From positions 1 through 20,655 of the forward strand of contig JBFMGO010000107.1 of NCBI GenBank assembly GCA_040752695.1: DNA of 20,655 bases, in the 5' to 3' direction. Numbering within the stretch: the first letter of the stretch is position 1; each line of letters begins with the position of its first letter. Of this stretch, positions 10,878 through 20,646 are shown in pieces. This DNA is from a bacterium. GTDB taxonomy: Bacteria > SZUA-182 > DTGQ01. The position numbers and the translations under genes were made by a program. A model generated the notes under the pieces. It worked only from the letters and a program-made list of their open reading frames with translations. It did not search any database and had not been told where the DNA came from.

Positions 10878-11099
10878 ATGATGCAATTAAGAGATAAGGT
10901 ATATGATAAGGTAAGTAAAATGAGTATCAGTGAGTTGTCTTTAGTCTATGAACAAATAGAACTCATGGAGAAAATGAAAACAGCTTCACGAAGGAAAAGG
11001 GGATGCCAATACTCTATAGAGGAAATTCTCGAAATGACGAAATCCTCAAAAAAATCCTGGGCTGATGAGGTGAAAGCGCTTCGGGAAGAAAGAATATGA
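10878..11099 (+). CDS. Putative type II antitoxin
   Basis: 73 aa, GGAGG RBS, ends WADEVKALREERI and overlaps the PIN gene start via ATGA. Assigned by position and size only. Confidence 0.65.
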   Translation: MMQLRDKVYDKVSKMSISELSLVYEQIELMEKMKTASRRKRGCQYSIEEILEMTKSSKKSWADEVKALREERI

Positions 11100-11344
11100 G
11101 CTATTTTTTGGACACCTCGGCTTTAGTAAAAATATACCATAGTGAATCTGGCACGAGCGAACTTTTAAAGATATATAAGGGAGGGCAATCTATCACCATT
11201 TCACAGCTCGCCAAAATAGAGTTTTTTTCAACGATGCATCGGAAGTTGAGAGATGGTGAGATTGATGAAAAAACACTCGGTGTTTTAATGGACAAATTTG
11301 AATATGACACTGAGGAAAGATATGAAAAGGATATAGCGCTTTGA
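11096..11344 (+). pseudogene. vapC: PIN-domain (VapC-like) toxin, C-terminally truncated
   Basis: YFLDTSALVKIYHSESGT and ISQLAKIEFFS are PIN N-terminal motifs. Only 82 aa, and the later acidic active-site motifs of a full PIN domain are missing. Confidence 0.75.
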
Positions 11345-12765
11345 TTCCTGTTGACAAACAGGGTGCGGAAACGGGGCAGGTTTGAAACCTGCCCCGTTTG
11401 GTAATGATTCAGATCGTTATTCTGGGTCAAGGTGCCCAGGGAACCATTCCCTGTATCTACGGTTATCAGTGGAGTAGCGTTTAAATCCTTATCCGAAAAA
11501 AATTCCATAGAAAGCGTGTTATCATTCATTGCGGATCGAACCGTGAAGGCAGGAGGCGAGGGTTCTCCGATGTTGATCTCGACACCGGTCTTATTCTCCT
11601 GGGCGGCAAGAGACATGTTTCCATCTGCCGCAGGGTAAACCGTTACCTTATAGTCCTCGGCACTGGTGACTAAAATATACTTTCCGGGGATCAGGTCCGC
11701 TATCGAGAAAGCACCACCTACCGTCTGATCGGTATGGCAGGTGTTATCATCGAGATTATAAGCCAAGACCGTGGCTGAATTAACGAACCCGCCGCTGCTG
11801 TTCTTGACTGTGCCGGAAATTGAGCCAATGGTTGCACTAAGACTGAAATCCTGAGTAGTAGTTTCACCAGAAGTAATGACGATCGTGGACTGCTTCGCCG
11901 CATAGCCAGTGGCATTCACCTTTACGGTATACGTTTTCTCACTGATACCCCTGATCTCATAATTTCCCGAACTGTCAGTAAATGCCTTTTTTCCGTTTTC
12001 CAAAATGGTAACCAGGGCACTTTCTATGGGAGCTTCGGCACTCTCCCCGGTAACTTTGCCCTTCAGGATCCCGCCTGCACTAAAGGTAATATTCCGGGTA
12101 GCCGTGTTTCCAGCCGTCACGGTAACGTCTTGATACATAACGCTCGCCAGGTTCCTGGCATAGGCCGTCAGTGTATAGGTGCCCGCTGGCAGATTTTTAA
12201 ATTTATAAGAGGTACCATAGCCAGGGAAAGCAACGGCATCTTTTAAGGGCGTGACAATGGGATTATCCTTTCTGGCTGCGTAAATGAGACACCAGTCCTG
12301 TGGAAACGAGTCGTAGCCGGAAGGCACTGTTATACCCCCTTCGAGGTTCCCCAGGTTTGTGGTTGTTGCGGTGAAATTAATGTTTTCCTCGACATCTCCC
12401 TTGGACAGGATCAGTCTTTTCCAGTCATGAAGAATAGCACATCCTCCTCCTGGGACTGTACTGCTATAAAAGGTATACATGCAAAGCCCAAGGTCTCCGG
12501 GGGGAAGAACCAGACTATATTTCCCAGGCGTCTCGGAAGGTGCAGGTTCAAAATAATCGCTATAGCCATCCTCAATATTTTCCAAGTCTGCCGACCCTAT
12601 GAAGAAGCTATCAATCATGAGATAATCCTCTTCAGTATAAGTTTGCTCCATGGAAAGAGCCAGGATTCCAAAAGAGGGGTAGCCAAAGTCCTCGTAAATT
12701 GCCGTTTCTCTGTCAAGATGTGGAATTGAGCGTTTGGGGGCTCTGTCACGGAATAACTCAGGCAA
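11101..12765 (-). CDS. Surface/secreted-type protein with carboxypeptidase-regulatory-like beta-sandwich repeats; probably truncated at both ends
   Basis: Repeated G.I.G.V...TD..G.Y...L..G.Y.V...A.GY units (NLPAGTYTLTA, TDSSGNYEIRGISEKTYTVKVNATGY, DLIPGKYILVT). No signal peptide. The credible coding part is about 11401-12710; the last ~100 codons are a palindrome followed by the antisense of the PIN gene. Confidence 0.7.
   Translation of the reverse strand: MPELFRDRAPKRSIPHLDRETAIYEDFGYPSFGILALSMEQTYTEEDYLMIDSFFIGSADLENIEDGYSDYFEPAPSETPGKYSLVLPPGDLGLCMYTFYSSTVPGGGCAILHDWKRLILSKGDVEENINFTATTTNLGNLEGGITVPSGYDSFPQDWCLIYAARKDNPIVTPLKDAVAFPGYGTSYKFKNLPAGTYTLTAYARNLASVMYQDVTVTAGNTATRNITFSAGGILKGKVTGESAEAPIESALVTILENGKKAFTDSSGNYEIRGISEKTYTVKVNATGYAAKQSTIVITSGETTTQDFSLSATIGSISGTVKNSSGGFVNSATVLAYNLDDNTCHTDQTVGGAFSIADLIPGKYILVTSAEDYKVTVYPAADGNMSLAAQENKTGVEINIGEPSPPAFTVRSAMNDNTLSMEFFSDKDLNATPLITVDTGNGSLGTLTQNNDLNHYQTGQVSNLPRFRTLFVNRNQSAISFSYLSSVSYSNLSIKTPSVFSSISPSLNFRCIVEKNSILASCEMVIDCPPLYIFKSSLVPDSLWYIFTKAEVSKK
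11369..11399. repeat. Perfect 15-bp inverted repeat (REP-like)
   Basis: AAACGGGGCAGGTTT-G-AAACCTGCCCCGTTT. Confidence 0.85.
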
Positions 12766-12872: not shown

Positions 12873-13009
12873 AAACCTATCCCAAAAGTGTAGATATCGA
12901 CATAGGCTCAGAACGTATCCCAAAACACCTCACTCCCCCCTTTTCTAAAAGGGGAATGGGCGGAACAAAAATGTCTTGCCCATCGCTTTAAGGATCTTGG
13001 GATAGACTC
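12873..13009. mobile_element. MITE-like element(s) with TATCCCAA/TTGGGATA ends
   Basis: AAACCTATCCCAAAA (12873) and GAACGTATCCCAAAA (12911) as left ends; ATAGGCTC (12902) and TTGGGATAGACTC (12997-13009) as right ends; internal C/G-tract hairpin; no transposase. Confidence 0.45.
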
Positions 13010-13048
13010 ATAAAGTGAGGCGGATAGCAGAAGCCTCACTTTATGAGT
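13006..13048 (-). terminator. Strong hairpin downstream of the GLYG-repeat gene
   Basis: Perfect 16-bp stem ACTCATAAAGTGAGGC / GCCTCACTTTATGAGT with an 11-nt loop, 38 nt after the stop codon. Confidence 0.65.
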
Positions 13049-13086: not shown

Positions 13087-13653
13087 TCAGGTTACGAGGA
13101 TAGGACTGGCTGGTGAAGCTACCGGAGTTATGGCTGGTGTAGCTGCCGGAGGTGTCCCGATCGTAGTGGTAATACTGGTGGTTCCATACCCTCCCAATAG
13201 GCCGCTCAGTCCCATCAAACCGGACATGCCTAAAAGGCTGAATGGATCCATGCCATACAAGCCGCTATAAAGTCCCATGCCGTAGAGACCACCGTAGAGC
13301 CCCATGCCATAGAGACCGCCATAAAGGCCAAGACCACCATAGAGGCCACTATAAAGTCCCATGCCGTAGAGACCGCCGTAGAGCCCCCCGCCATAGAGAC
13401 CGCCATAAAGCCCTATACCATAAAGGCCGCCATAGAGACCGCCGTAAAGCCCCATGCCATAAAGGCCGCCGTAGAGACCACCGTAGAGCCCCATGCCATA
13501 GAGACCGCCGTAAAGGCCAAGACCACCATAGAGTCCCATGCCGTAGAAGCCACCTAATCCATAATAAGCTTGAGCGGTTTTAGGGGTTGCTGTAGAAAAA
13601 ACAAGGCAGGCTAGCAAGGCAATAAATACACTCAAAAATTTTTTTGAAATCAT
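13087..13653 (-). CDS. Exported Gly/Leu/Tyr-rich repeat protein (21 x GLY[G/S])
   Basis: GAGGAG RBS; signal peptide MISKKFLSVFIALLACLVFSTATPKTAQA (AxA site); repeats vary at synonymous positions; Thr/Pro/Ala-rich tail; downstream hairpin. Confidence 0.85.
   Translation of the reverse strand: MISKKFLSVFIALLACLVFSTATPKTAQAYYGLGGFYGMGLYGGLGLYGGLYGMGLYGGLYGGLYGMGLYGGLYGGLYGIGLYGGLYGGGLYGGLYGMGLYSGLYGGLGLYGGLYGMGLYGGLYGMGLYSGLYGMDPFSLLGMSGLMGLSGLLGGYGTTSITTTIGTPPAATPAITPVASPASPILVT
13252..13536 (-). repeat. Coding tandem repeat array, 12-nt GLYG unit with codon-sized spacers
   Basis: Units such as GGTCTCTACGGC, GGCCTTTATGGC and GGGCTCTACGGT; all insertions between units are in frame. Confidence 0.9.
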
Positions 13654-13895
13654 GATTTAACTCCTCTATAACCATCACTGAGAACCATGAATTAAGTAAA
13701 ATAACCAGTGAAAAGAATATACTTTCTTGCGAGACTATCACCTCCCTCCGGGCGAACCTCCCCCCCTCCCAATACTATTAATGCAAGGCGGTTTCTTCAC
13801 TTTGACCGGAAAGCCTCAAGGTGAGCGCAGAACATAAACTCGCTTCGGCGTCAGAAAGCAAAAAAGGACATTAATCAACTTCAAAGGAGTACTTT

Positions 13896-13932
13896 GTCTT
13901 CAGGAAAAGTCATTCGTCTTCAGGAAAAGTCA
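13896..13932. repeat. 17-bp direct repeat x2, 20-bp period
   Basis: GTCTTCAGGAAAAGTCA at 13896-13912 and 13916-13932. Confidence 0.85.
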
Positions 13933-20094: not shown

Positions 20095-20646
20095 TTACTC
20101 AACCTCTACGCTTACCTCAAAGGTACTGCTTACGCTTCCGGAAGAGCTTGTATACTCAAGTTTAATATTGGTGGTGCCAATATCGATGCCTTTAAAAATC
20201 CACTGCTCCATATAGCTATTTGTCTGGACCAGGTAAAATTGTCTGCTTTGCTTTTCAACAATATCTTCATCTATTTCATCCGTATCCAGGACCCATTGAT
20301 ACCCACCATAAGGGTTGGAAGCTAAGATGATACTGATGGTATCGCTCTCTTCAATGGTAACGTCATCGCCATTGTTGCTTACCGTAAGGGATTTATCAGC
20401 AGTCTGAAATTGCTGAGTAGGAGTCTGCGTGTAAGGATACTGCCCATAGGGGTTATACTGCCCGTAGGGATTCTGCGCGTATTGATATTGCCCATAGGGA
20501 TTATACTGCCCGTAGGGATTCTGCTGCCCATAGGGATTCTGCGCGTATTGATACTGCCCGTAGGGATTCTGCGCGTATTGATATTGCCCATAGGGATTAT
20601 ACTGCCCGAAGGGATTCTGCTCATATAGATACTGACCGTAGTGAAA
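20095..20646 (-). CDS. Partial gene: NPYGQ/QYQYAQ low-complexity repeats fused to a chagasin/inhibitor I42-like domain
   Basis: Manual translation, 183 sense codons with no N-terminal start: FHYGQYLYEQNPFGQYNPYGQYQYAQNPYGQ...SLTVSNNGDDVTIEESDTISIILASNPYGGYQWVLD...EQWIFKGIDIGTTNIKLEY...TFEVSVEVE*. The track ORFs here are the wrong frames. Confidence 0.78.
   Translation of the reverse strand, partial: FHYGQYLYEQNPFGQYNPYGQYQYAQNPYGQYQYAQNPYGQQNPYGQYNPYGQYQYAQNPYGQYNPYGQYPYTQTPTQQFQTADKSLTVSNNGDDVTIEESDTISIILASNPYGGYQWVLDTDEIDEDIVEKQSRQFYLVQTNSYMEQWIFKGIDIGTTNIKLEYTSSSGSVSSTFEVSVEVE

Follow-up and report, generated by a model that had tools for sequence, protein, structure and literature searches.

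Curli, chaplins and the Methanospirillum sheath are structural proteins of the cell surface that are exported and assemble themselves, and curli combine Gln/Asn repeats with a linked csgG operon. Envelope proteins that are Sec-exported, very hydrophobic and keratin-like provide a further bacterial precedent, as described in passages of PMC10386293. In animals, the amorphous M2 module of the suckerins, from squid sucker-ring teeth, has GGLY as a unit, and the peptide GLYGGYGV forms beta-sheet hydrogels (passages of PMC11931252). Spliceases act on XYG targets, and splicing without a leader has been demonstrated (parts of PMC11414181 and PMC11626197), while type 11 cargo joins a variable, sometimes disordered N-terminus to a C-terminal eight-stranded barrel (part of bioRxiv 10.1101/2024.09.26.615229). 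The literature on GGLY/GLYG-type repeats, covered through titles and abstracts and including few subscription papers, yielded no bacterial family of the kind described here.

The window, the whole 20,655-nt stretch of DNA that we analyzed, is contig C107 of a 6.05-Mb bacterial genome (G000) that is 96.6% complete. On its minus strand (ORF 13653..13087) it encodes a protein of 188 aa, hereafter P0001. The gene and its flanks, in the direction of transcription, comprise the following features:

13738..13745, minus strand: GGAGGTGA, a Shine-Dalgarno-like element 92 nt ahead of the start, orphan in having no start codon after it
13661..13667, minus strand: ribosome-binding site AGAGGAG, 7 nt ahead of the ATG
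13567..13653, minus strand: signal peptide (residues 1-29), predicted by pattern, with a signal peptidase I site between AQA and YYG
13252..13566, minus strand: GLYG tract (residues 30-134), with 47 Gly, 24 Tyr, 24 Leu and 6 Met
13183..13251, minus strand: hydrophobic Leu/Gly/Met-rich segment (residues 135-157), which holds D136 and has a similar counterpart in the orthologues
13087..13182, minus strand: Thr/Pro/Ala tail (residues 158-188) plus stop codon, with the hydrophobic C-terminus PILVT
13006..13048, minus strand: 3' hairpin with a perfect 16-bp stem, without a U-tract and present as a single copy in the genome
12931..12958, minus strand: second, terminator-like hairpin, of a kind no commoner than in shuffles

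The initial annotation had described an exported protein made almost entirely of GLYG repeats, and its reading of the chain was borne out. A signal-like N-terminus of 29 residues precedes a 105-residue tract in which 21 GLY[G/S] units (19 GLYG and two GLYS) are separated by M, I, G or GL spacers; 10,000 shuffles of this repeat gave a mean of 1.2 such units and a maximum of eight. Tyr recurs every 4-6 residues along the tract, which has neither charge nor His, and D136 is the only charged residue of the 159 in the mature protein, from which Gln and Asn are absent. The mature protein contains 22 xYG motifs, and the motif counts are 10 GGLY (the suckerin-like element that the annotation had recognized), 12 GLYGG, one GYG and one GGY. 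YY[G/S] follows the signal-like start in most of the 35 GLYG-type ORFs of G000, and by pattern a Tyr-Tyr start after Ala, Gly or Cys is common to 25 paralogues (26 of the 32 called, one being a contig-edge artefact). The signal of P0001 also contains a lipobox-like LLAC (Cys16); since a lipobox occurs in just two of the 32 paralogues with a pattern-called cleavage site, cleavage by signal peptidase I is more likely, with the lipobox as a minor alternative. As the initial annotation had found, no family could be named: Pfam (0 matches at E 0.1), NCBIfam and PHROGs hold none that matches P0001. The Atlas structure model is poor (pTM 0.21, pLDDT 0.47), and the Atlas matches to P0001, all below 0.9, are leads only.

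Two genomes of the same genus (G001 and G002) carry orthologues with 79% identity. Across P0001 and these orthologues the number of repeat units varies (21, 15 and 17) and near-chargelessness is kept, with one and zero charged residues in the two mature orthologues, both of which have an intact reading frame. Their C-termini, SIIVT and VIVT, share the tail motif of P0001. The annotation had argued for selection on the protein from variable third codon positions, and the comparison agrees, in that most differences are synonymous: relative to P0001, we counted 11 synonymous and 8 replacement differences in the first 33 codons of the G001 orthologue, and synonymous to replacement ratios of 12:3 (G002) and 9:4 (G001) in the 20-codon tail. 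Within P0001, Tyr is encoded by 13 TAT and 8 TAC codons, and Gly by all four of its codons. Homologues are conserved, the close orthologues are free of frame breaks and no known family matches; what these sequences support is that P0001 is a real, selected, exported and non-globular Gly/Tyr repeat protein of a family without a name.

P0001 resembles suckerins in being of secreted type, rich in Gly, Tyr and Leu, built with GGLY units and part of a multigene family. It differs from them in its bacterial origin, in the barrel and PPYN domains of its partners and in lacking the Pro-flanked, His/Ala-rich M1 module described in passages of PMC11931252; it has no His at all, and therefore no pH trigger. 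Its best eukaryotic match is a GLYG-rich oyster protein (P0026). The likeness to suckerins is compositional, without evidence of homology, and probably reflects convergence. Unlike curli-type amyloids and sheaths, P0001 has no Gln or Asn, no adjacent CsgG/CsgEF-type genes and no family match, and it belongs to a far larger modular set; CsgG matches elsewhere in the genome, on other contigs, are partial and span only positions 9-98 of the 210. Because one defining feature of each fails, P0001 is assigned to none of the suckerins, sulfur globule proteins, curli, spliceotide precursors and type 11 cargo. By analogy, it may work like the suckerins or the sulfur globule proteins. The M2 module and its hydrogel peptide offer a precedent for the chemistry, and the sulfur globule proteins one for export followed by coating (passages of PMC11931252 and PMC10386293).

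The search for paralogues and relatives that the initial annotation had proposed proved productive. Regex rules applied to a six-frame scan of G000 (51,405 segments) called 35 GLYG-type ORFs, a few of them borderline or cut by contig ends; 18 end in a shared barrel domain, six carry a short 'QNMY' module, one has a CxxCH, and His makes up 0.2% of residues over all 35. P0001 found matches in 13 of 13 genomes of the order (6-34 each) and in none of seven other genomes of the class (phylum), the related genomes in this comparison not being independent observations, and in none of 11 distant genomes. Among 30 database matches at E 1e-5, 27 pass the family pattern, and the 30 include the oyster protein and one unrelated-looking bacterial protein. 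A (GLYG)3 DNA pattern run over 185,579 species genomes returned 68 stretches, 44 of which come from eight records that carry no title beyond 'bacterium isolate'; an AlaS tree places two of the eight with the window, and the others are assigned by architecture. The remaining 24 stretches consist of one that is family-like (L297) and 23 with five or fewer units. The former, at L297:462-1082, is complete as a member of the family and comes from a record with the title Pseudomonadota bacterium, for which label, binning or transfer are possible explanations. The pattern also occurs once each in three viral contigs (L315-L317).

On one contig (L096:1121-18928, G000:C94), GLYG-barrel genes form a tandem of five, accompanied by two further GLYG genes, an S8 subtilase beside the tandem, an M4/M36-like peptidase, an unassigned membrane protein and two ICMT/PEMT-like proteins, and the gene order is partly kept in G001 and G002. 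The proteases of this cluster could process the GLYG family. Two GLYG proteins have a helical C-terminal region that bears one CxxCH (L098:10129-10884 on G000:C1 and L141:5667-7242 on G007:C10); from their sequences, and with no Pfam match, they are candidate mono-haem cytochromes with a Gly/Tyr tract.

The initial annotation saw no globular domain, which is correct for P0001 and incorrect for the 18 paralogues that end in the barrel. This shared C-terminal domain of about 116 aa is predicted to form an eight-stranded antiparallel barrel (pLDDT 90.5), and in this it resembles avidin and streptavidin, P0001 itself having no barrel. The best structural likenesses are to de novo barrels (Z 14.0 and 13.4), the alpha domain of QH-AmDH (Z 12.9, rmsd 3.0, 104 aligned) and zebavidin, an avidin (Z 12.5, rmsd 2.2, 99 aligned), and OmpA-type barrels are also resembled within this Z 14-12 span. 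Identity to the structural matches is 4-21%, no Foldseek match reached E < 0.001, no Pfam family is common to more than one of 22 members, none matches an avidin Pfam family, and the barrel profile has no PDB sequence match below E 0.04. Weak GFP matches (E 0.04 or worse) were judged to be chance and rejected because the barrel is eight-stranded. In the alignment, one face of the barrel is hydrophobic or Gly and the other is Thr/Ser-rich, which suggests a soluble, filled barrel. Searched against 1.84 billion representatives, the barrel profile found 126 proteins, 99 of them low-charge; 27 of the 126 have at least four GLYG-type units. Eleven of the matches, all long proteins, have the look of noise driven by repeats. 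The profile also hits all 13 genomes of the order, and none of the seven others of the class (phylum). The modules are shuffled among proteins, in that barrels cap GLYG, PPYN and other low-complexity proteins, with up to five per chain.

To place these proteins within the predicted secretome, a census of G000 was made with a crude custom signal heuristic that has false positives; it counted 102 of 1147 secreted-like ORFs with fewer than 8% charged residues, and four of the 102 were removed by eye to leave 98. The 102 ORFs total 72,975 nt, about 1.2% of the genome. The largest sister group, PPYN, has about 29 proteins in G000 and a Pro/Trp-rich domain that is predicted to be folded (best pLDDT 91, with five models ranging from 91 to 49.5). 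Compared with 48,161 PDB representatives, the PPYN model has no fold match (best Z 2.4), which is not proof of a new fold. The PPYN profile finds 765 proteins in the database and repeats the distribution of the barrel across genomes (13 of 13 in the order, none of the seven others). One related contig (L139:1691-19309, G007:C12) carries eight tandem exported low-charge genes, seven with PPYN; the proteins of this array have one to five barrels each, joined by Pro/Thr/Val linkers, and the longest has 1026 aa. The 98 proteins share a hydrophobic C-terminal bias toward Ile, Val and Leu: the last residue is Ile in 41, versus 4.1 expected from their own composition and 21 of 815 controls. Two octahaem proteins with 6-10% charged residues (G000:C33:32379-33953 and C2:105954-107636) contain long Ser/Leu/Pro low-complexity tracts like those of the family.

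The expression signals reported in the initial annotation, a ribosome-binding site of its own and a strong downstream hairpin, were both recovered. The 16-bp hairpin is more stable than all 200 shuffles (z -5.4), and a strong 3' hairpin follows 44 of the 98 low-charge family genes versus 42 of 200 controls. An orphan Shine-Dalgarno-like element lies 40-260 nt upstream of 29 of the 98 family genes versus 48 of 862 other secreted-like genes; among GLYG genes, 12 of 28 have one, and none of these then has a start. A similar element precedes both orthologues of P0001, where a possible start codon comes next. The element is a possible mRNA stabilizer and recalls the STAB-SD stabilizers described in part of PMC4113751. 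RNase J was not found in G000 (the control was positive in 13 of 14), and the classical STAB-SD reading of the upstream element is therefore weakened. Rfam has no match anywhere in the window.

The reading that we favor, with somewhat better than even confidence, is that P0001, having no barrel, would serve as a filler subunit in a hydrophobic extracytoplasmic coat, sheath or matrix made of several proteins and held together non-covalently through Tyr/Leu stickers, and that this extracytoplasmic material would be characteristic of the bacterial order; the argument draws on comparative genomics and on analogy. P0001 would have its own transcript, probably stabilized, as the ribosome-binding site, orphan element and hairpins suggest. 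The product would be exported by Sec and then cut to the Tyr-Tyr-Gly N-terminus apparent in the pattern. By analogy to suckerin M2, the chargeless tract, with a Tyr/Leu sticker every 4-6 residues and Gly as spacer, would condense and harden non-covalently together with its paralogues. These would supply folded nodes in the form of the eight-stranded barrel, the PPYN domain and the occasional haem-binding motif, roles that are suggested by the observed architectures, and the common hydrophobic C-terminus might serve as a docking or sorting tag. Against this reading, P0001 has no dedicated neighbors, being flanked by a PTS-EIIA/Zn-ribbon gene on one side and by a carboxypeptidase-regulatory-domain ORF on the other, and no dedicated chaperone or secretion channel was identified. 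The cell is diderm, judging by Omp85, and G000 has seven secretin matches; either the periplasm or the space beyond the outer membrane is therefore a possible location.

Tyr cross-linking, which the initial annotation had raised by comparison with animal proteins, fared less well. DyP, CcP/MauG and multicopper oxidase (laccase) were not found in the 96.6%-complete genome with controls that worked, and tyrosinase gave 0 matches in a search whose control was silent too. The genome does contain motifs that we take to be those of CO dehydrogenase and acetyl-CoA synthase. Because the three oxidases were not found and these motifs are present, oxidative dityrosine cross-linking as the main route is unlikely.

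A broader form of the preferred reading is tentative: one uncultured order may possess a previously unknown kind of envelope or sheath, with about 100 chargeless proteins of block-copolymer type, exported by Sec, as its building material. Such an envelope would combine suckerin-like GLYG elastomer tracts, PPYN, tandem barrel nodes and a hydrophobic C-terminal tag and, if real, would be a bacterial counterpart of animal cuticle and sucker-ring materials that hardens without oxygen or cross-linking enzymes. An animal GGLY grammar that appears, apparently independently, as an order-defining bacterial trait would point to a new class of prokaryotic structural polymer, and the unusual envelope predicted here could aid in recognizing and isolating these organisms. 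The family also offers hundreds of natural Sec-exportable variants for work on Tyr-driven condensation and protein materials, and two uncatalogued domains, the barrel and PPYN, one of them without a PDB match.

Instead of the cell surface, the proteins might coat a periplasmic inclusion, such as sulfur, another mineral or a storage body. This would suit a diderm cell, in which Sec by itself reaches the periplasm only, and one member in G000 carries a CxxCH, which implies passage through periplasmic haem attachment. The family also shares with SgpA, SgpB and SgpC a bacterial origin, a Sec-type signal (by pattern), very hydrophobic repeats and multiple copies, as portrayed in passages of PMC10386293. 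However, P0001 has no match to PF17228 (a search across G000 gave 0 matches with a silent control), its GLYG tract lacks regular Pro spacing, and DsrA, of the reverse Dsr route for oxidizing stored sulfur, stays below cut-off in G000 (best TIGR02064 score 27 bits, cut-off 393). Gene number differs as well, with 35 to about 100 genes versus one to six sgp genes per genome in passages of PMC10386293, and the seven secretin matches represent routes out of the cell. We therefore regard an inclusion coat as unlikely.

It is also quite unlikely that the proteins are individual surface adhesins or ligand binders in which the barrel serves for outer-membrane targeting, as in type 11 cargo, and the GLYG tract forms an adhesive arm. 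The barrel does align to fHbp (Z 10.1) and NHBA (Z 9.7), and the cargo architecture fits the barrel-bearing paralogues. It does not fit P0001, which, like 16 others of the 35, lacks the barrel, and the Z scores are higher for de novo barrels, the QH-AmDH domain and avidins. A search of G000 for Slam/DUF560 (PF04575) gave 0 matches, with a control that was likewise silent.

Nor do we give much weight to a matrix with a redox or conductive function, which would connect the many multihaem cytochromes of the cell to outside acceptors through dense Tyr tracts and the occasional haem. G000 does have 49 ORFs with at least three CxxCH, and both the GLYG proteins with a C-terminal CxxCH and the two low-charge octahaem proteins would suit such a role. 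Against this, the family is not enriched near multihaem genes (7 of 98 versus 54 of 815 at 3 kb) and only one of the 35 GLYG ORFs has a CxxCH, which leaves the idea improbable.

The order also encodes a splicease-like radical SAM enzyme, and the LYG/MYG repeats could in principle be its substrates, as precursors of ketoamide peptides or as a backbone-edited polymer. Its cassette in G000 (L100:8698-13681, on C15, with a second copy at G000:C18:31107-35320) comprises an M50 protease, an SPFH-radical SAM fusion, the splicease-like radical SAM enzyme and leader-bearing YG precursors. The best families of the enzyme are TIGR04103, TIGR03913 and TIGR04133, all below cut-off; an orthologue with 71-100% identity is present in 10 of 13 genomes of the order and in none of the seven others, and one GLYG paralogue lies 1.7 kb away from the cassette. 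Like the spliceotide precursors PlpA and RhaA, as described in parts of PMC11414181, P0001 is rich in XYG motifs and shares its genome with a splicease-like enzyme. It differs from them in that a Sec signal takes the place of the leader, no radical SAM gene is adjacent and another residue comes after YG: Ile or Val follows YG at 45 of 58 precursor sites versus nine of 753 family sites. The enzyme has its own leader-bearing precursors, whose leader occurs in none of the 35 GLYG ORFs, and it is cytoplasmic whereas P0001 is exported. Furthermore, G001 (96% complete) retains the orthologue of P0001, along with 23 matches, without a close orthologue of the splicease; the precursor was not found there either, by a query that also missed a known one in G007. 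Modification by this enzyme is accordingly hard to credit for the family.

The weakest alternative, a slippage-expanded repeat without function or an unexpressed gene, finds some support in the frameshifts or internal stops of a few homologues (P0008 and several others) and is very improbable in view of the synonymous divergence, of a signal and tail that are conserved, of the expression signals and of retention throughout the order.

Several other features of the window were recorded. Upstream of P0001, 14085-14897 (minus strand) encodes a fusion of a PTS EIIA domain with a C4 zinc ribbon; this neighbor is retained, in synteny, upstream of the orthologue in G002, and the neighbors differ in G001. 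About 250 nt upstream of P0001 there is an exact 17-nt direct repeat (13896-13912 and 13916-13932) with a 20-nt period, which is possibly a regulator binding site. On the other side, 10878-11344 (plus strand) contains a small gene and a short ORF of 82 aa that matches 70 of 120 positions of the PIN-domain profile and overlaps the end of the carboxypeptidase-regulatory-domain ORF at 11101-12765 (minus strand), which has no obvious signal peptide; both look truncated. Finally, an ORF at 20095-20646 (minus strand) that runs off the contig end has a Chagasin/I42 inhibitor domain (E 1.8e-9) after a Gln/Tyr/Asn/Pro/Gly repeat, another case of a Tyr-rich tract fused to a folded domain, and a similar gene is found on C64.
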